Source: an uncultured Nitrososphaerales archaeon
GTDB lineage: Archaea > Thermoproteota > Nitrososphaeria > Nitrososphaerales > Nitrososphaeraceae
Reading direction: 5' to 3'
Length of the DNA: 64,000 bases
Assembly: GCA_963709405.1 (NCBI GenBank)
Contig: CAVPXM010000063.1
Location: 32,001-96,000, forward strand
The translations under genes and the position numbers were made by a program. Below, piece by piece: positions 4,237 to 54,629 of the stretch. The notes below the pieces were generated by a model. The model had not been told where the DNA came from and ran no database searches. It saw only the letters and a program-made list of their open reading frames with translations. The stretch's first letter is position 1, and every line of letters starts with the position of its first letter.

Positions 4237-6120
4237 ATGCAAAATAGTTCATCGGGAAACGAGCCTTCAAGCCAGAATATTATGGCTAGCATCCTCAATA
4301 ATATCCCGGCCGATTCAGGTCTTACTAAAATTGTTTATGAAGGACCAAGAATTGCTCTTTATGCCAAAAATACAGAATTCATTATGAAAGACACACAGGT
4401 TATTTCTAACATGGTGAATATACTTAAAAAAAGGATAGTTATACGCACTGATGAGTCTATTAGATTACCAGACAAGGAATCACTGAGGATTTTGCAACAA
4501 GTGATGCCAGCTGACGTTAAAATAAGAGAAGTATTTTTTGATGACGCGTTAGGAGAAGCCTGGGTTTGGGTTCAAAATAAATCCTTTTCATTTGAAACAA
4601 ATGAAAACATAGGTGATTTTCTGAAGAAGACGGGATGGAAGTTGGTATTAATGAGAAGTCCTAATACAATTACAACGATTAAGGAAATAAACGATGTGCT
4701 AAAGAAACGGGTGGAAGAACGTGCTCGATTTTATAAAAGTGTCGGTGAAAAAATATTTAGGTCAAAGTTGAGCAACACAGTTGAGGCGAGTGTAGTCGCT
4801 TTAGGGGGCTTTGGTGAGGTTGGAAGGTCTTGTTTTTTGCTCATTACTGATGAGAGCAAGGTCATATTTGATTGTGGAATCAACCTATATTCTCGAGATA
4901 GAATTAATGCCGTTCCCAGATTTGACACCCTTGGCATCAAAATGAATGATATTGATGCCATCGTAATTAGTCATGCGCATCTGGATCACACTGGATTCCT
5001 TCCTGTGCTTTTTAGGTATGGCTATTCAGGACCAATCTATTGCTCTGATCCTACTGTTCCTCTCATGTTTCTATTGCATAAACGGTATATCGAGGAAGCA
5101 GGGTCAGAAGCACTGTACTCGACTAAGGAGATAGAAGATATGGTTATACACACTATCCCATTGACATTTGGGAGTGTGACAGACATATCACCCGACATAA
5201 AAATAACGCTGGGTAATTCTGGTCATATTATAGGCTCTTCCGTAATCCACGTCCATATTGGGAACGGAGATCATAATCTAGTTTATTCTGGCGACTTGAA
5301 GTTTGGAAAGACGTATTCTCTTGATAACGCAGTTTGGAATTTCCCGAGGGTAGAAACACTGATAATCGAAGGAACGTACGGTGGAAAACAAGACGTATTT
5401 CCACATCGTGATGAAGCAGATACTATTCTAATAGAGAGCATAAATAATACCCTCATACGAGGAGGAAAGGTACTGTTACCTGTTCCCTCAGTAGGACTTC
5501 CACAAGAACTAATACTGACGATCAATCAATATATGACTGCGGGAAAAATTAAAAAGTCAACAATGTTGATTGAGAAAATCATAGCAGAGACGACATGTGT
5601 TTATGAAAGTAACTTGCAATATTTATCAAAGGACTTGCAAGCTGTCCTTATTCAAGGTAACGAAAATCCGTTAAGGCCGGATAATATGAAGATAGTTGAC
5701 TCAGTGGCCTTGGATGATAAGCCTGCCATTATTATGTCTCCATCTTCGATGTTGACCGGCGGACGATCTGTTCATTATTTAAAGCAAATCTGTGATTCCT
5801 CAAAAAATAAGATGATTTTTACTTCCTATCAGATGACTGGGACACTCGGAAGGAGTATTCAAGAAGGGTTCACTCGTCGGTTGGTTGAGGATAAGGAATT
5901 TGATCTCGAATGCGAAATCGAGACAATAAATGGTCTTTCTTCCCATAACGATTATAATCAATCGCTAGCATATATAAGCAGAATGAAGCAAAAGCTCAGA
6001 CGAGTATTGGTTAATCATGGAGAAAAAACAAGAGTTCAAAATTTGGCAAATTCTGTTAGCAAGATTTTCAAGATCCAAACACAACATCCGTTAGTACATG
6101 AATCAGTCAGGCTTATTTGA
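4237..6120 (+). CDS. beta-CASP ribonuclease, aCPSF1/FttA family (KH + metallo-beta-lactamase + beta-CASP)
   Basis: YEGPRIALY, LGGFGEVGRSC, SHAHLDH, GHIIGS, NHGE motifs. Confidence 0.9.
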   Translation: MQNSSSGNEPSSQNIMASILNNIPADSGLTKIVYEGPRIALYAKNTEFIMKDTQVISNMVNILKKRIVIRTDESIRLPDKESLRILQQVMPADVKIREVFFDDALGEAWVWVQNKSFSFETNENIGDFLKKTGWKLVLMRSPNTITTIKEINDVLKKRVEERARFYKSVGEKIFRSKLSNTVEASVVALGGFGEVGRSCFLLITDESKVIFDCGINLYSRDRINAVPRFDTLGIKMNDIDAIVISHAHLDHTGFLPVLFRYGYSGPIYCSDPTVPLMFLLHKRYIEEAGSEALYSTKEIEDMVIHTIPLTFGSVTDISPDIKITLGNSGHIIGSSVIHVHIGNGDHNLVYSGDLKFGKTYSLDNAVWNFPRVETLIIEGTYGGKQDVFPHRDEADTILIESINNTLIRGGKVLLPVPSVGLPQELILTINQYMTAGKIKKSTMLIEKIIAETTCVYESNLQYLSKDLQAVLIQGNENPLRPDNMKIVDSVALDDKPAIIMSPSSMLTGGRSVHYLKQICDSSKNKMIFTSYQMTGTLGRSIQEGFTRRLVEDKEFDLECEIETINGLSSHNDYNQSLAYISRMKQKLRRVLVNHGEKTRVQNLANSVSKIFKIQTQHPLVHESVRLI

Positions 6121-6133
6121 GTCGATGTATTAA

Positions 6134-6150
6134 GAACCTATCCGAAAAGT
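6134..6150 (+). mobile_element. Extra (outer) IS5-type terminal repeat GAACCTATCCGAAAAGT, preceded by TAA
   Basis: 16/17 identical to the inner left end (6307-6323) and 15/17 to the reverse complement of the right end (7247-7263). Confidence 0.8.
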
Positions 6151-6157
6151 AGTTGAG

Positions 6158-6306
6158 GTCGTAATTTAACTAATATAGGATTGAAATGATGACTAGGCGG
6201 TGTACACTCAACCCCGCCTAGATGGTTGTAATTTGATCAATATAGAATTGAAACTTAGCTGCTCCCGGATTCGAGTCACATACTCGCATTGTTGTAATTT
6301 GACTAA
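6158..6306 (+). CRISPR. Orphan CRISPR mini-array: two 30-nt repeats plus a truncated third repeat, two spacers (37 and 36 nt)
   Basis: Repeats 6158-6187 GTCGTAATTTAACTAATATAGGATTGAAAT and 6225-6254 GTTGTAATTTGATCAATATAGAATTGAAAC, half repeat 6291-6306 GTTGTAATTTGACTAA. The ATTGAAAC 3' end and spacer sizes are CRISPR-typical. No cas genes in the window. Confidence 0.8.
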
Positions 6307-7263
6307 GAACCCATCCGAAAAGTAGAGTTTTATTGAGTTACAAGCAAAGTGTGTTTGATCGATAAAGCTAAGCTGTACTGCAAGTATCTTCTGAGTTGTT
6401 GTATTGATATCAGAGGTTAGTGGAGTTGATTCATCTTACTGCATACCTGATGTTGTTTGGGACAGGATCATTGCATTGCTATCTCCATCAATACGAAGGA
6501 GGAAGAAAAAGGCTGGTCGTCCAAGAATGGATGACAGGAAGGCTATGAGTGCTATTTTCTACGTCCTACGTACAGGCTGTCAGTGGAATGCTCTACCAAG
6601 AAGTCTTGGTGCTTCAAGTACAGTACATGACAGATTCCAGGAATGGATAAAGGCTGGTGTTTTCAAGCGAATGTGGATCGATGGATTGACCATGTACGAT
6701 AAAAAAACTGGGATCGATTGGAAATGGCAGGCTATGGATGGAGTGATTACAAAAGCACCTCTTGGGGGAAAAAAGCACAGGACCAAATCCCTACCACAGA
6801 CAGAGCTAAATCAGGTACAAAACGCAGTATTCTAGTAGATGGTAAAGGTGTACCACTTGGTGTATCTGTAGATGGAGCTAACAGACATGACATGAAGATG
6901 ACCAAAGCAACACTGCAAAGCATAGTCATCTATAGACCTGAACCAACAATCAGATTAAAGCAGCACATGTGCATTGACAAAGGCTATGCCTTTCCTGAAG
7001 TATACGAATTACTAGAGAAGAGTATGGTTATACAATTCACATCAGATTAAGAGGTGAAGAAATAAGCAACAATAAAGAAGAAGAAGAAGGAATACCAAAA
7101 TACAGAGCTAGACGATGGGTTGTTGAAAGAACCCATTCTTGGATGAACAGGTTTAGACGATTGCTAATAAGATGGGAAAAGAGGATAGAGAACTATGTCG
7201 GAATGCTACATCTTGCTTGTGCTTGGATCACGTATAGAAGAGGTGGACTTTTCGCATAGGCTC
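6307..7263 (+). mobile_element. IS5-family insertion sequence
   Basis: Ends GAACCCATCCGAAAAGT and ACTTTTCGCATAGGCTC, flanked by TAA on both sides, with an IS5 transposase inside. Confidence 0.9.
6404..7259 (+). pseudogene. IS5-family transposase in three frames
   Basis: GRPRMDDRKAMSAIFYVLRTGCQWNALP, KRSILVDGKGVPL, DKGY, RWVVERTHSWMNRFRRL. A G5A6 slippery-like site lies near 6765, and there are further indels. Confidence 0.88.
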
Positions 7264-7715
7264 TAAATTAAGATAGATATCTCGAAGTAATTCTCACTTG
7301 GCCTTAGGTTTATACTCAGGATGACGATAATGGTACTAGCAATATGAATTCGTTATTCACGTGCATTCAGGAATTTTATCCCAGATATTCTTGAAGCCAG
7401 TTAGGCGCTAAGGTTTTACTCGAGGGCTAGTAATGACTAAAAGCTCTCCGGCCTATCAGGCTATTGCCGAACTTGAGAAAAAGAGTGTAACTGAGCAGAT
7501 CTCGTAGCATTGTGTTAACTACTTTTGTCATTTCTTATTTGATTCTTGCAGCTAGCACATCATCCATTTTCTCTATATTGTAGGTTGATCGACCGACTTT
7601 AGGAACACAAGAAGGTTTGATAATTCTGTGCCACTACTATAAGATGAAATATATTCCAACTTCTCACGATTAGATAAATCATACTACTTAATACTGAAAA
7701 ATGAACTACTCGACT

Positions 7716-28830: not shown

Positions 28831-29697
28831 TTAATAGTAAGTAATCTGCCCGCCCCCGATCTGCGTGCCAAGACCAGTAAATATCAAGATATTTACCAAG
28901 ATTACGGACACGACAGTTAATGATGATATCATTATTACCCTATATCCCTTGGGTATCATTTGTCTCCTCAACATAATCAAAAAGGATACGGACAGGAGCG
29001 CGGCTATTGAAAGGGACGAAATCATAGTAGCATTGGTAATCATCTTTCCAGCGTATGAGATGCTAGGATTCGTTAATATCTGCGTGCCAAGACCAGTAAA
29101 TATCAAGATATTTACCAAGATTACGGACACGACAGTTAATGATGATATCATTATTACCCTATATCCCTTGGGTATCATTTGTCTCCTCAACATAATCAAA
29201 AAGGATACGGACAGGAGCGCGGCTATTGAAAGGGACGAAATCATAGTAGCATTGGTAATCATCTTTCCAGCGTATGACATGCCTGGAAAAATAGTGTATG
29301 ATTGAGAGTATATCCCGACGCAAACAGATACTACGATCGCCATCGCCAATAATATCACTAGGTTTCCACGTATGAAATTCAACATAGAGTATTTTAGATC
29401 TACTTCTAGAGGTTCAGAATGCTGATCTCCCGACTCGGAATCTTCATCTTTGTGAATATCGGGAGCTTTAAAGTCAATTTCCTTAAGTAGTCCCCAGCCA
29501 TCCTGGGTAATAAGATACTGCTTAGAATCCTTCGTTATGTACTTGCCCATTCTTTCCAAATGGTAGTAGATAGAACCAGTCGACAGGCCGGTTGCATCTC
29601 TAATATCTGAGAAACCCGCACAGCCTTTTCTTCCAGCAATTGCCTTCAATATTTTCAACCTTGTACGCCTAGCACGCAGTTGTGTTTCTCCAGTCAA
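28831..29697 (-). CDS. Membrane-anchored winged-HTH (ArsR-like) regulator with duplicated transmembrane segment
   Basis: N-terminal GFSDIRDATGLSTGSIYYHL HTH; C-terminal hydrophobic helices repeated. Confidence 0.8.
   Translation of the reverse strand: MTGETQLRARRTRLKILKAIAGRKGCAGFSDIRDATGLSTGSIYYHLERMGKYITKDSKQYLITQDGWGLLKEIDFKAPDIHKDEDSESGDQHSEPLEVDLKYSMLNFIRGNLVILLAMAIVVSVCVGIYSQSYTIFPGMSYAGKMITNATMISSLSIAALLSVSFLIMLRRQMIPKGYRVIMISSLTVVSVILVNILIFTGLGTQILTNPSISYAGKMITNATMISSLSIAALLSVSFLIMLRRQMIPKGYRVIMISSLTVVSVILVNILIFTGLGTQIGGGQITYY
28859..29277. repeat. Two identical 200-bp direct repeats with a 219-bp period
   Basis: 28859-29058 matches 29078-29277; in frame (73 codons). Confidence 0.95.
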
Positions 29698-49639: not shown

Positions 49640-52600
49640 TTAAGCACAACCTACTGCGGCTGCTGCAGCTGCTGCAGCTGCCGGCGAAGCTCCAGCTCGC
49701 TGTTGCTGCTGCTGCGGCTGCTGCAGGCTGTACCAGCTGCCGATGCTCCACTAGCTGCTGCGCTTGAGGCTGCTGACGCTGCGGCTGCTGCGAGCTGCTG
49801 GCGAAGCGCCTGCTACTGTAGTGGCTGCTGCGGCTGCCGCTGCGGCTGCTGCGGCTGTACCAGCTGCCGAGGCTCCACTAGCTGCTGCGCTTGAAGCGGC
49901 TCCTGCTGCTGCTGCTGGCTGGCTGCCTGGCGATCCTCCTGCTGCTGCTGCTGCGGGCTGCTGCCGGCTGCTGCAGCGGATGCCGTTGGTGAACCTCCAG
50001 CAGATGAAGCTGCCTGCTGCGGCTGCAGATGCCACGCCACCTATAGATGCTCCGGCTGCGACTGCGGATGAGGCTGCACTCGCCGCTGCCAATGCCGCTG
50101 ATGCACTACCACCTGCTGAAGATGCGGCTGCTGCGGCGGATGCTGCTGGTGGTACCACCAGCTGGCTGCGGCTGCTGCGGCTGCTGCTGCTGGCCGGCGA
50201 TGCTCCTGCTGCTGCTGCTGCTGCTGCGGCTGCTGAGGCAACTCCGGTTGGTGAGGCTCCATTAGCTGCTGCGCTTGAAGCTGCTGCTGCGGCTGCTGCT
50301 GCGGCTGCTGATGAAGCTCCTGCTGCAGAAGCGGCTGCTGCGGACGCTGCTGCGCAGGTACCACCTGGTGAAGCTCCAGCTGCTGCGGGCTGCTGCCGGC
50401 TGCTGCTGAAGCAACTCCGGATACAGATGCTCCACTAGCTGCTGCACTTGAGGCTGCTGACGCTGCGGCTGCTGCTGCCGATGTGGATGAGCCAGCCTTT
50501 TGCGCAGCAGACGATGCGGCTGAGGATGCTGCTGTGGCTGCTGCTGAAGAGATTGGGGATTTCAAAAGTGATGACGCTGGCGGCTGCTGCTGTTGCCGCT
50601 GTCGAAATTGAGGAGGATATAGTGGATGCGGCTGCCGATGAGGCTCCAGCTGCAGTTGCTGCTGCTGCGGCTGCTGTGGCAACTCCTGAGGCTGAGGCTC
50701 CACGAGCTGCTGCACTTGCTGCTGCTGCGGCTGCTGCGGCTCCGGCTCCTGGTGAAGCTCCAGCTGCACTTGCTGCTGCTGTCGGCTGCTGCGGCTGCTG
50801 CTCCACCAGGTGAAGCTCCTGCTGCTGCTGCGGCTGCTGCGACTGCTGCTGGCTGTTCCAGCTGCCGATGCTCCACTAGCTGCTGCGCTCGAAGCGGCTG
50901 ACGGCAGCTGCTGCGGCTGCCGCAGATGAAGATCCAGCTGAAGATGCGGCTGCTGCGGCTGCTGCAGAGGTGGCTCCACCTGCTGCGGCTGCTGCGGCTG
51001 CTGCGGCTGCTGCAGGTGAGGCTCCAGCTGCTGTTGCTGCTGAGGCTGCTGGAGATGCTGCACTTGCTGCTGAGGCTCCACTAGCTGCTGCACTTGCTGC
51101 TGCTGCGGCTGCTGCGGCTCCGGCTGCTGGTGAAGCTCCAGCTGGCACTTGCTGCTGCTGCGGCTGCTGGCGGCTGCTGCTCCACCAGGTGAAGCTCCGG
51201 CTGCTGTTGCGGCTGCTGCGGCTGCTGCGGCTGTTCCAGCTGCCGATGCTCCACTAGCTGCTCGCGCTCGAAGCAGCTGCTGAAGCTGGCCTGCGCTGGC
51301 TGCTGCTGAAGATCCAGCTGAAGATGCGGCTGCTGCGGCTGCTGCAGAGGTGGCTCCACCTGCTGCGGCTGCTGCCGGCTGCTGCGGCTGCTGCAGGTGA
51401 GGCTCCAGCTGCTGCTGCTGCTGAGGCTGCTGCAGATGCTGCACTTGCGGCTGAGGCTCCACTCAGCTGCTGCAGCTTGCTGCTGCTGCGGCTGCTGCGG
51501 CTCCGGCTGCTGGTGAAGCTCCAGCTGCACTTGCTGCTGCTGCGGCTGCTGCCGGCTGCTGCTCCACCAGGCGAAGCTCCAGCTGCAGTTGCGGCTGCCT
51601 GCTGGCTGCTGCGGCTGTTCCAGCTCGCCGATGCTCCACTAGCTGCTGCACTGCTGCGAGCTAGCTGCTGAAGCTGCTGCTGCGGCTGCTGCTGAAGATC
51701 CAGCTGAAGATGCGGCTGCTGCGGCTGCTGCAGAGGTGGCTCCACCTGCTGCGGCTGCTGCCGGCTGGCTGCGGCTGCTGCTGGTGAAGCTCCAGCTGCC
51801 TGCTGCTGCTGAGGCTGCTGGCAGATGCTGCACTTGCGGCTGAGGCTCCACTAGCTGCTGCACTTGCTGCTGCTGCGGCTGCTGCGGCTCCGGCTGCTGG
51901 TGAAGCTCCAGCTGCACTTGCTGCTGCTGCCGGCTGCTGCGGCTGCTGCTCCACCAGGTGAAGCTCCAGCTGCGGTTGCGCGCTGCTGCGGCTGCTGCGG
52001 CTGTTCCAGCTGCCGATGCTCCACTAGCTGCTGCGCTTCAAGCTAGCTGCTGGAAGCTGCTGCTGCGGCTGCTGCTGAAGATCCAGCTGAAGATGCGGCA
52101 GCTGCCGGCTGCTGCAGAGGTGGCTCCACCTGCTGCGGCTGCTGCGGCTGCTGCTGGCTGCTGCAGGTGAGGCTCCAGCTGCTGTTGCTGGCTGAGGCTG
52201 CTGCTGCGGCTGCTGCTGCGGCTCCATTATCAGCTGCGCTTGAAGCGGCTGCTGCGCGCTGCTGCTGCTGGCTGCGGTGAAGCTCCAGCTGCGGTGGCGG
52301 CAGTTGCGGCTGCTGCGGCTGCTGCTGCACTTGGAGTTGCACCCGAAGCAACTAGTGATGAGGCTGCCGATGCGCCTGCACTTGCTGGTAACAACCCTTG
52401 GCTAGTTGCTGTTTGTGCCGCTGAGGTTGCATTAGAAAGTTGTGCTGGGTCTAATTTCTGAGTTGATAAGGCACTCTGTAAGGTTGATTGGAACTTTTCA
52501 GTTGATATGTTTTTGGCTGGCTAAAGTTTGCCCTGGTGGTGCAAAGCCAGGTGCTGTTGCATTTTGTTCCGATGAGAGGGCGGCGGCATTTTGAATAGGT

Positions 52601-53469
52601 CCAGGTGCTGTTGCATTTTGGGGTTGAGCTCCAGTTGCATTTTCAATTGGTGCAAAGCCAGGTGCTGTTGCATTTTGGGGTTGAGCTCCAGTTGCATTTT
52701 CAATTGGTGCAAAGCCAGGTGCTGTTGCATTTTGGGGTTGAGCTCCAGTTGCATTTTCAGGAGCAGCCAATTGTTGTGGGAAGTTTGTTGCTGGTCCGGT
52801 TAGGTTTTCAGGACTGGTGGCTGCTCTGGTGCTGGTGGTTGTTCCGGAAGGGTTTCAGGCTCCGGTTGGTTTTCAGGAGCGTGTCTGCTCTAGTTGCGCT
52901 GGTGGTTGTTCTGGAAGACCAGTTGCTGGTCCGGTTAGGTTTTCAGGAGGTGTCTGCTCTGTCGCTGGTGGTTGTTCTGGAAGACCAGTTGTTGGTCCGG
53001 TTAGGTTTTCAGGAGGTGTCTGCTCTGTCGCTGGTGGTTGTTCTGGTTGGCTAGTGTTATTTTCAGTTGAGGGTTGTCCGCTATTACCAGTTGAGGGTTG
53101 TTCGTTATTTTGAGTTGAGGGTTGAGGAATGATCGTGGGCAATGATCCTGAAGGGTTGTTTTCAGTTGACGGTTGTCCGCTATTATCAGTTGAGGGTTGT
53201 CCGCTATTATCAGTTGAGGGTTGTTGTGAAGGATTATTTCCGTTCGTATTATCATTAGTCGAGGAGTCCTGAGATCCGGAACTTCCACCTGAATCTTTCT
53301 TACTCTTTGAGAAAGATACTTGATATGTACTCAGAGGAAGTATCCCTGACAGAACGACGATTGAAACTATTACGACCGCAAATAACTGCTTATTTTTGGA
53401 TCTAAATGGATCGTAAAACACAGTTCCAGGTAGGCACCGTAATATAAATATGATTCGCCAATTCTGCAA
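49640..53469 (-). CDS. Large secreted or surface low-complexity protein (Pro/Thr repeats then a poly-Ala/Gly-Ala-Ser-Pro domain); reading frame broken by many indels
   Basis: N-terminal hydrophobic segment, then PSTDNSGQ, PEQPPATEQTPPENLTG and PQNATAPGFAPIENATGAQ repeats, then STEKFQSTLQSALS... leading into (A)nGASP repeats. Probable stop near 49640. Confidence 0.7.
49650..52330. repeat. GCT/GCG trinucleotide-rich array with a ~383-bp higher-order unit
   Basis: The anchor GATCCAGCTGAAGATGCGGC recurs at 50931, 51311, 51697 and 52080. Confidence 0.9.
52540..53225. repeat. Coding tandem repeats of 57, 63 and 24 bp
   Basis: 57-bp unit at 52601/52658/52715; GGTCCGGTTAGGTTTTCAGG units; CAGTTGAGGGTTGTCCGCTATTA units. 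Confidence 0.9.
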
Positions 53470-54003
53470 TACACTAGGATGCTAAATTAGACGCGTTGGT
53501 TTCGAAATTAGATTTATAATAACTGTCGTAATAGCACTAAAATATACAGGAATACTTACAATACCCGAACAAATGCCCCTAGGCACTGTCTTTTATGCAT
53601 GAGTTTAACATAACAGCAGTGACATGCCGAACGTATCGCAAATTAATCATCGCATCCTGCCTTTCTCGGAATAAACTATATTGTTTAGGGTTACGATGCG
53701 AATCATTCACGTACTAATTCCAATTCCAATTATCGCGACAAAAATCATATCTTCGTCTACTTTTTTGAAATGCAAATGCTTGGACGTGGCTACCAATTTA
53801 TTGTATGACCTATGCGGCGAATGCCAACGTTCAATCAATATTATCTCCACTTTGACAAGTTGGAATGAAATGTGCTCGAAAAGGGTTTTTGCATGTTAAT
53901 GCAGGTATACGCGGTCTTTATGACTTGCAAATATTCTTACCTACAGCTCGTTGACGATTGCCTTCCACACGTTGATAATCCAGGATTCTGAAAGGCCACG
54001 CCT

Positions 54004-54095
54004 GTGCAGGAAACTGAATCCGTCATAACAAGGATTGCAACAATAAACGACTAGGCGGTAAGTACCAAACCCCGCCTGTGCATGATACTAATCCT
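54004..54095 (+). CRISPR. Putative single repeat-spacer-degenerate repeat unit of a second (37-38 nt) repeat family
   Basis: GTGCAGGAAACTGAATCCGTCATAACAAGGATTGCAAC (AATCC/GGATT stem, ATTGCAAC end), a 36-nt spacer at 54042-54077, then GTGCATGATACTAATCC matching the 5' half. Confidence 0.5.
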
Positions 54096-54436
54096 TGTAG
54101 CTAGACGCTATTAATGCCTATATCCACTTTACAGATTGTGCAACATCATTGCCATTATCCAGTAGAGTGGCACTAAGAACGAGTACTGTGTTAGCCTTCT
54201 CTCCACACCAGTTAACGTAGACGGAATGTATACGTTTAGTGATTTTACCTCTATGATCTCTATATAACTTGGATACACTTTTACGTAACGGTTATGCATT
54301 GGGTTAGTTATGTGAAAAATCGGAGTATGGAAGTGTACGAAGGCCTACTCGCTTCAAATATACAAGGAAAAAGACCAAAAGTGTAATTAGATGCGAATAA
54401 TTGTCAATTTACTAGATGTAAACCAACGGACAAAGA

Positions 54437-54629
54437 AACTCTCGAATAGGTTCTTAGGTCAAATTACAACGGTTCACCCTCGATATCTAAACATTACTTC
54501 TTTCAGGATGTTTCAATCCGATATTAGTCAAATTACAATACAACAACACACACACCCACAATCTCAGATAGGAGTGTTTCAATCCTATGTTAGTCAATTT
54601 ACAACCTCAACCACTTTTAGGATCGGTTC
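54437..54629 (-). CRISPR. Second orphan mini-array (same 30-nt repeat family as 6158-6306) bracketed by IS5-type ends; spacers 36 and 39 nt
   Basis: On the - strand: GAACCGATCCTAAAAGT, GGTTGAG, GTTGTAAATTGACTAACATAGGATTGAAAC (54576-54605), spacer, ATTGTAATTTGACTAATATCGGATTGAAAC (54510-54539), spacer, GTTGTAATTTGACCTAA, GAACCTATTCGAGAGTT. Confidence 0.8.

Follow-up and report, generated by a model that had tools for sequence, protein, structure and literature searches.

A hairpin spacer family common to a probable orphan CRISPR mini-array in decay and to IS5-linked 30-nt-repeat mini-cassettes in a Nitrososphaeraceae archaeon

The 54-kb unit and its surroundings

The window, that is, the whole stretch of 64,000 nt analyzed in this work, lies on a contig (C63) of an uncultured Nitrososphaerales archaeon whose assembly (GCA_963709405.1, hereafter G000; 4.83 Mb, 100 contigs, 37% GC, 91% complete) contains the archaeal amoA gene. 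Among 18 ORFs located around 4-8 kb and 43-64 kb, those matching a Pfam family correspond to housekeeping genes or, at 6.4 kb, to an IS5 transposase, while six had no match. Neither cas families nor mobile-element families were found among these ORFs beside the unit located at 54 kb, the neighbours of which are ribosomal protein S3Ae, ALAD, a pyruvate-kinase-domain protein, a polyprenyl synthetase, and a Nuo/Mrp subunit; a search of the whole window against Rfam at the gathering threshold retrieved two tRNAs and nothing else. The window also contains a very long GCTGCT-rich, Ala-codon-like repeat region (49640-53470), which has numerous nested direct repeats, is broken in several reading frames, and is probably the gene of a repetitive surface protein or of a low-complexity one, or else noise of the assembly within such a gene. 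Two 210-nt direct repeats (28859-29287), 99% identical and 219 nt apart from start to start, are present as well.

The region 54004-54094 reads ...GTGCAGGAAACTGAATCCGTCATAACAAGGATTGCAAC / AATAAACGACTAGGCGGTAAGTACCAAACCCCGCCT / GTGCATGATACTAATCC..., i.e., a repeat, a spacer, and half a repeat, the first of them a 38-nt repeat-like unit with the 3' terminus AACAAGGATTGCAAC (Table 1). The first-pass annotation had described a 36-nt slot preceded by a 38-nt unit and followed by a degenerate half repeat, and this anatomy was confirmed by both the sequence and the alignments; indeed, the global alignment of the two repeats (R1 and R2) revealed 15 matches across the first 17-18 nt, with one gap. If the unit is compared with the definition of a mini-array given in the accessible text of the Shmakov 2023 preprint (two repeats 15-60 bp apart), it comprises a full repeat and a 36-nt spacer, the second repeat being represented by its first 17 nt only. 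Further degenerate 37-nt repeats were not detected upstream of position 54004, the local alignment score (16) being lower than the shuffled median (19), and the predicted fold of 53990-54115 does not stand out (z-score on the plus strand, -1.78; on the minus strand, -1.05). The unit and the second 30-nt-repeat cassette are convergent, as had been stated, with ~340 bp between them, the repeats of the latter (54510-54539 and 54576-54605) being on the minus strand.

Table 1. Features of the 54-kb unit and of the two 30-nt-repeat cassettes (positions in the window)
Feature	Positions	Strand	Remarks
'Leader' of the 6.2-kb cassette: solo left terminal inverted repeat of a type-2 IS5-family element, GAACCTATCCGAAAAGTAGTTGAG	6134..6157	+	matches the distal ends of type-2 IS copies
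H spacer of the 6.2-kb cassette ('spacer 1'), GATGACTAGGCGGTGTACACTCAACCCCGCCTAGATG	6188..6224	+	between 30-nt repeats 6158-6187 and 6225-6254
IS5-family insertion sequence (DUF4096 + DDE_Tnp_1, frame broken)	6307..7263	+	in the last, truncated repeat (6291-6306)
Repeat R1 of the 37-nt CRISPR repeat family (38 nt here)	54004..54041	+	AATCC/GGATT internal stem; 3' end ATTGCAAC
36-nt spacer, member of the H hairpin-spacer family	54042..54077	+	alignment to cassette copies, BLAST
Hairpin 5' arm AGGCGG	54053..54058	+	CTAGGCGG begins at 54051
13-nt loop TAAGTACCAAACC, hypervariable part of the H family	54059..54071	+	
Hairpin 3' arm CCGCCT	54072..54077	+	next repeat begins in place of the two outer stem pairs (..TAG) of the cassette copies
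Truncated second repeat R2, GTGCATGATACTAATCC	54078..54094	+	corresponds to the 5' part of R1
Second 30-nt-repeat cassette (spacers A, F)	54440..54629	-	solo IS-end stub on each side

The region is, in our reading, an orphan, decaying mini-array composed of one 37/38-nt repeat, one spacer, and half of a second repeat. Isolated (orphan) arrays lie away from cas genes and consist of one or two repeats and a single spacer, part of the repeat sequence being degraded. The 54-kb unit resembles them in its few repeats, its single spacer, its degraded repeat, and the absence of cas genes beside it; unlike them, however, it carries a spacer with a homologue that is present in 12 copies, in the same genome, among repeats of a different family, and its locus is kept in related strains.

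The unit occurs in a single copy in G000, and the earlier assignment of it to a repeat family other than that of the cassettes holds: it belongs to the 37-nt AATCC...AACAAGGATTGAAAC type, being identical at 27/37 positions to the bona fide array repeat (GTCAAAAAAGTTAATCCAATATAACAAGGATTGAAAC, 37 nt) of G024, a genome from another genus of the same family, while the 3'-anchored comparison with the 30-nt cassette repeat yielded 16/30. The arrays of G024 contain 7-10 regularly spaced copies of this repeat, and one of them lies directly after cas3, an unnamed ORF, cas1, cas2, and cas4. The 54-kb unit is the sole site of G000 (4.83 Mb, both strands) with up to 10 mismatches to the G024 repeat, the next-best ones having 11 (one site) or 12 (five sites). 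The Rfam family CRISPR-DR7 (RF01320), which has the same AATCC/GGATT stem and AACAAGGATTG.AAC end as the unit, aligned with 54005-54041 over its full length (model positions 1-37/37) at 19.1 bits (E 0.13 on 141 nt), i.e., below its gathering threshold of 37 bits. The 54-kb repeat, then, is like a CRISPR repeat with respect to the array repeat of a relative, the internal stem, the ATTGAAAC-type 3' end, and the register with the spacer. Similar 37-nt units were observed in two genomes of other genera, G010 and G017 (loci L016, ~1489-1525, and L013, ~1040-1076), where they looked solitary within the 500 nt examined.

Soil-metagenome contigs from two studies match 53701-54109 at ~95% identity, the longest piece showing 18 differences and two gaps in 409 nt. 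Within R1, these related strains lack the G at 54016 and have G>A at 54022 and C>A at 54038; by reading, each of the three differences would go towards the family consensus. The missing letter at 54016 closes the gap in the alignment of R1 with R2, the letter at 54038 is the canonical A, and the resulting repeat is 37 nt long, ends with ATTGAAAC, and is identical to that of G024 at 29/37 positions (by reading). Since the related strains hold the locus with a more canonical repeat, the locus is inherited, the repeat being the part that is decaying in G000. No difference was listed for the related soil strains within the 71 nt from 54039 to 54109, while the flanks differ by ~4%. Among the species representatives of the same genus, 53950-54130 had no detectable match (best E 0.18 or worse).

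IS5-linked mini-cassettes and the H hairpin spacers

The 30-nt repeat GTTGTAATTTGACTAATATAGGATTGAAAC occurs 37 times in G000 (with up to six mismatches), in 15 clusters of 1-4 repeats and in no long array. The spacers of these cassettes are seven reused modules, present in full or nearly full copies (A, 6; B, 5; C, 3; D, 3; E, 1 plus two partial ones; F, 5; H, 12), and modules A-F had no match elsewhere in G000. The array at 6.2 kb is thus no ordinary array but one of about 15 IS5-linked mini-cassettes that have a common spacer library, a context not anticipated in the first-pass annotation, so that its 'spacer 1' is a copy of a 12-copy module, H. This module is absent from 4 of the 15 cassettes, occurs twice in tandem in some of them, and is second, behind spacer A, in five. 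The order of the modules differs among cassettes, and the soil contigs show a further one. In the second cassette of the window, 54458-54542 is covered by soil contigs at 29-100x (3-9x in the flanks), with other modules attached to the repeat (an E-like spacer, as its reverse complement), a pile-up pointing to cassette modules that are multicopy and differently ordered in related populations. Outside G000, one of the 120 genomes of the family that were searched, a congener, has the 30-nt repeat, in a two-repeat mini-array with an unrelated spacer (L044, G006:C190, 1500-1590).

Besides the two loci of the window (6134-7266 and 54440-54629), cassettes are borne by contigs C21, C30, C40, C49, C50, C55, C59, C63, and C97, and most of them are preceded by the 24-nt GAACCTATCCGAAAAGTAGTTGAG. 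Many terminate in a repeat that is interrupted after GTTGTAATTTGAC-TAA by an insertion sequence; at 6307-7263, for instance, the element is inserted at TAA, which is duplicated at 7264-7266, and the target duplication of this IS5-family element is a 3-bp TWA. All six copies of the type-2 subtype (~80% identical to the copy in the window) abut a cassette, and most of the ~8 full copies of another subtype (~91% identical) do not adjoin one. On the basis of the IS ends found around the cassettes and of the unrelated sequences lying past the far IS end among the loci examined, we infer that the assembly [IS end - mini-array - IS] would move as a composite transposon, with the mini-array as its cargo. 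The 6.2-kb cassette starts (6134) 14 nt past the stop codon of a 627-aa protein of the FttA/aCPSF1 type (window 4237-6120; KH, beta-lactamase, beta-CASP, and RMMBL domains), and from this distance it can be predicted that read-through could transcribe the cassette.

The first-pass annotation was based on a gapless alignment of 54049-54077 with 6191-6219, and the identity of 23/29 was reproduced, with all six differences lying between AGGCGG and CCGCCT. The pattern GACTAGGCGGT-N8-AACCCCGCCT occurs in the window at these two sites only (both strands, up to two mismatches); none of 100 dinucleotide-preserving shuffles of the window contained any match, and the reversed pattern, used as a control, had none in the whole genome. 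The genome-wide search that had been proposed as a check revealed 12 copies in slots flanked by repeats, spread over 11 cassettes, one copy at C30:43373, and the one at 54 kb, i.e., a family of 14 copies, the signature of which consists of an AAYGA flank, the stem CTAGGCGG/CCGCCTAG, and a 13-nt loop beginning with T. The 54-kb copy is identical to this signature in the flank and in the 5' arm, has a 13-nt loop with T in the first position, and keeps six of the eight letters of the 3' arm. Moreover, the BLAST comparison of 54031-54077 with C21:283369-283411 gave 79% identity (E 7.4e-4 to 0.008). The central claim, according to which spacer 1 of the 6.2-kb cassette has a homologue in a unit of the 37-nt type, is therefore borne out. 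Both flanks of the 54-kb spacer are of the 37-nt type and not the 30-nt repeat of the other H copies. The copy on C30 (43373-43399; locus L022, ~1480-1560) reads GACTAGGCGG...CCGCCT, is followed by GTGTAATTTAAC, a decayed 30-nt repeat, and is ~20 kb from the C30 cassette.

These observations bear on the possibility that the unit is a product of chance, the 38-nt stretch not being a CRISPR repeat and the hairpin being a common dispersed palindrome. The sub-threshold Rfam score, the single copy of the unit in G000, and the six 37-mers with 11-12 mismatches to the repeat of the relative are what such an explanation would predict. However, the unit abuts the spacer in exact register, with the half repeat 36 nt further on, related strains have a more canonical version, a CRISPR repeat or a remnant of one adjoins 13 of the 14 hairpin copies, and the reversed pattern is absent from the genome, so that we regard a chance origin as highly improbable.

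The H copies do not vary evenly along their length. Compared pairwise, the 12 copies in the cassettes differ on average by 2.1% over the 16 stem positions, by 48.5% in the loop, and by 10.6% in the flanks; the corresponding averages for spacers A, B, and F of the same cassettes are 4.3%, 1.4%, and 2.6%, so the H loop is ~10-30 times more variable than the neighbouring spacers. The cassette loops closest to the 54-kb loop (those of C21 and C59) are alike in 8 of the 12 compared columns, and an exact 14-nt stretch, AACGACTAGGCGGT, is common to the 54-kb locus and to four cassette copies. None of the eight stem pairs shows a compensatory change (96% of the cells are paired, and the shuffle control was uninformative), which means that RNA structure and plain sequence conservation are not separable for this stem; the suggestion that the spacer is a conserved structural RNA module has consequently found no confirmation in covariation. 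A reading of H as a mini-ORF (ATG ACT AGG CGG ... TAG) was discarded, the ATG being missing in 5 of the 12 cassette copies.

The boundaries of the spacers are also informative. The 54-kb spacer aligns with positions 1-32 of H, has four extra letters (AATA) at its 5' side, and ends 5 nt earlier, before AGATG. All the cassette copies run on as ...CCGCCTAGATG, with an 8-bp stem; at the 54-kb locus, CCGCCT is followed by the repeat start GTGCA. Given this offset (4 nt more at the 5' side, 5 nt fewer at the 3' side), H was not copied from the 54-kb locus, and the earlier suggestion that spacer 1 derived from it is excluded, the cassette copies extending past CCGCCT and the 54-kb spacer not. The orientation of H relative to the repeat is the same in both formats, with ...AAC AA at both junctions.

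The resident type I-B locus and the search for a target

A type I-B locus is present on another contig (G000:C46:1-7570, L054), where a cut cas6 gene (95 aa) is followed by five repeats GTTTAAATCGAACTATTATAGGATTGAAAG with four unique spacers and then by cas8b, cas7, cas5, and cas3. The repeat of this array is identical to the 30-nt cassette repeat at 23/30 positions. Cas1, Cas2, and RAMP searches retrieved no match in G000 (91% complete), and no cas1, cas2, or cas4 gene follows the I-B genes of C46. The first ~870 bases of this contig are high-GC, foreign to G000, and contain an ABC-transporter-like fragment (by reading of the translation), and C46 looks chimeric just upstream of cas6; together with the 91% completeness of the genome, this implies that the absence of the cas genes may be an assembly gap. 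The 54-kb unit (on C63) ends with AGGATTG.AAC, like the I-B repeats, and might for this reason remain a substrate of the resident Cas6 and Cascade. Nevertheless, it is probably no longer used for immunity, given that neither adaptation genes nor a cognate cas locus are found in the assembly.

The target of H was sought in several collections. The exact stem with a 9-15-nt loop is absent from 119 of the 120 other genomes of the family, the single match being in G059. In IMG/VR, the bare stem pattern retrieved 69 loci, a number close to the chance estimate, none of them with H-like flanks, and a stricter pattern retrieved five loci, none convincing. Scans of metagenomes and of GTDB yielded none convincing among at least 233 loci (filtered for repeat handles, low GC, and TAG continuation), with a pattern that is too loose for collections that large. 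A low-GC virus group with GGACTAGGCGGC...CCGCCTAGTTT (~11 contigs) and, in addition, contig L102/L366 looked faintly H-like; no match was found in five such records searched with the whole cassette or in five searched with the I-B array, and these leads were dropped as due to chance. The phage collection had no match either, and the plasmid collection gave only matches at E=6, to Klebsiella plasmids. Concerning the other modules, the exact 19-nt core of spacer A was found in IMG/VR on two contigs resembling one virus, with no extension past the core, while the cores of B and F (19 nt, exact) had no match there. The proposal that two CRISPR formats point at the same conserved hairpin, such as the end of a mobile element or a replication origin, fits the offset boundaries of the spacers, but none of the collections searched yielded a target. 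As a whole, the first-pass interpretation is supported in part.

Searching G000 itself, we found no promoter with a seed match for the 54-kb spacer, a weak test since the PAM rules of this system are undefined; the partial matches are one of 10 nt, at the junction of a spacer with a repeat in the I-B array, and one of 14 nt, inside a 339-aa ORF that, by reading, would be Kae1-like. This bears on a possible role of the unit as a working crRNA-like regulator or decoy (of the CreA, CreR, regulatory mini-array, or RNA anti-CRISPR kind), in which a hairpin guide cut by Cas6 would steer Cascade or tie up Cas proteins. The architecture of degenerate repeat, spacer, and half repeat is in agreement with such a role, as are the 71 nt of spacer and half repeat without listed strain differences and the 3' end in common with the I-B repeats, themselves 23/30 to the cassette repeat; furthermore, in the accessible text of the Shmakov 2023 preprint, regulatory mini-arrays are common in archaeal I-B loci. 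Several data point in the opposite direction, though: the unit and the cas locus are on different contigs, the matches in G000 are limited to the junction and to the interior of an ORF, the G000 repeat bears three changes away from the consensus, one of which is in the 8-nt tag, and the lack of differences in 71 nt is only weakly unexpected (~3 would be expected). Hence, we consider a regulatory or decoy function unlikely.

Origin of the hairpin spacer and its relation to known systems

The explanation that we hold to be probable, with modest confidence, is that the 54-kb unit is an orphan mini-array of a second type I repeat family and that two repeat systems separately captured the same, or a homologous, palindromic site. 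According to this model, a foreign element would carry the palindrome CTAGGCGG-N13-CCGCCTAG, the arms of which would be constrained while the loop would change freely; each repeat system would have captured the site independently, giving rise to the 4-5 nt offset of the spacers, and the loop variants would represent separate captures of diverged versions of the site. The IS5-family element would then most likely have carried the 30-nt I-B-like cassettes around as cargo. From the offset of 4-5 nt at the boundaries, we infer that each of the two systems captured this site; moreover, since both flanks of the 54-kb spacer are of the 37-nt type, a genuine integration fits the unit, for which just one crossover with a cassette would not account. 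The main weakness of this explanation is the lack of a protospacer for H in the collections searched. In addition, the position of H behind spacer A in five cassettes means that independent captures at the leader end would need later shuffling between arrays, and shuffling is evident from the many orders in which the modules occur. The same orientation of H and the ...AAC AA junctions of both formats also fit a transfer of spacers between arrays.

A different, rather unlikely, origin would be the capture of the 54-kb spacer from the H module of a cassette-bearing insertion sequence, a host system of the 37-nt type having once targeted transposon-borne mini-arrays; no third-party target would be needed for this copy. 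The match runs from the end of the repeat through H (AGGATTG.AAC AA..., 54031-54077 vs C21:283369-283411) in the same orientation, the exact 14-nt AACGACTAGGCGGT is found in four cassette copies as well as at the 54-kb locus, and the cassettes, being mobile and multicopy, are plausible targets. However, AACGACT is preceded by AATA, where a cassette source predicts AAAC (two of four letters match), with no difference listed there for the related strains; the best cassette loop agrees in just 8 of 12 compared columns, and the origin of H and the diversity of its loops would be left unexplained.

Alternatively, H might be a functional module of the IS-linked cassettes and not an immune memory, i.e., a structured RNA released by Cas6 or a DNA palindrome bound by a protein, with a diversifying specificity loop, and the 54-kb copy would be another carrier of it. 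The invariant stem with a loop so much more variable than the neighbouring spacers, the 12 copies, at times two in tandem, and the association of 6/6 type-2 IS copies with a cassette are consistent with this idea. Against it stand the absence of compensatory changes in all eight stem pairs, the fold z-scores of only -1.8 and -1.1, the four cassettes (out of 15) devoid of H, and the loops themselves, the complementarity of which to the adjacent IS (as an antisense idea would require) was no better than that of shuffled loops. We therefore deem a functional module decidedly doubtful. One might also combine some of these elements into a scenario of a CRISPR against a CRISPR-like array: the IS5-borne cassettes would be a selfish transposon riding on the host I-B machinery, H would be a palindrome jamming Cascade or binding a protein, and the 37-nt mini-array would be the old spacer of the host against that module. 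Such a scenario appears to us improbable.

Returning to the mini-array as an independent capture, its comparison with known systems revealed both likenesses and differences. With the CreA/CreR-type mini-arrays of type I-B (accessible part of the Shmakov et al. 2023 preprint), the 54-kb unit shares the degenerate repeats around a spacer-like segment and a host with an I-B effector, whereas it differs in not being in or beside a cas operon, in having no promoter target found, and in a repeat type unlike that of the resident I-B array. The mini-arrays of viruses and mobile elements, as described in the accessible portions of Medvedeva 2019, Camara-Wilpert 2023, and a 2024 BMC Biol review, are resembled by the 30-nt cassettes, which have 1-4 spacers on a mobile element and repeats near to those of the host I-B array (23/30); the carrier of the cassettes, however, is an insertion sequence of the IS5 family and not a virus or a plasmid, and the 54-kb unit itself is, unlike such mini-arrays, chromosomal. 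None of the cassette spacers matched a rival element. As for RNA anti-CRISPRs, a mobile carrier and the mimicry of a host repeat are found in the 30-nt cassettes but not in the 54-kb unit, which occupies a housekeeping site orthologous in related strains.

Precedents exist, as far as the accessible parts of these sources go, for orphan, regulatory, and virus-borne mini-arrays, for repeat decoys, and for arrays carried by integrated elements of Thaumarchaeota. What is new here is one hairpin spacer family common to two repeat families, the combination of an invariant stem with a hypervariable loop over the 14 copies of this family, and an IS5-family element as the carrier of mini-cassettes. The term 'insertion sequence' has no occurrence in the accessible text of the 2024 BMC Biol review, and no insertion sequence carrying mini-arrays was found in the literature searched, in the parts of it that were accessible, although a published case may exist.

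Ammonia-oxidising archaea drive soil nitrification, and little is known of their mobile elements and defences. In G000, an I-B effector locus for which the assembly contains no adaptation genes occurs together with the fossil of a second repeat family and with about 15 mini-arrays that an insertion sequence appears to have spread, and the H spacer connects both kinds of array. If H corresponds to a hot, constrained site of an archaeal virus or plasmid, then the stem would be a handle for searching for it and the loop variants a record of an arms race; if H is instead the cargo of a transposon, we would be dealing with an insertion sequence that uses CRISPR parts for its own ends, a case not encountered in the literature searched.

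Lastly, the integrated mobile elements of Thaumarchaeota, conjugative or cryptic, harbor long arrays of 69-96 mostly unique spacers (Krupovic et al. 2019, accessible part). The cassettes analyzed in this work are similar to these arrays in the archaeal group, in the I-B context, in standing alone on mobile DNA, and in having host-like repeats; they are instead many and tiny, and reuse seven spacers.
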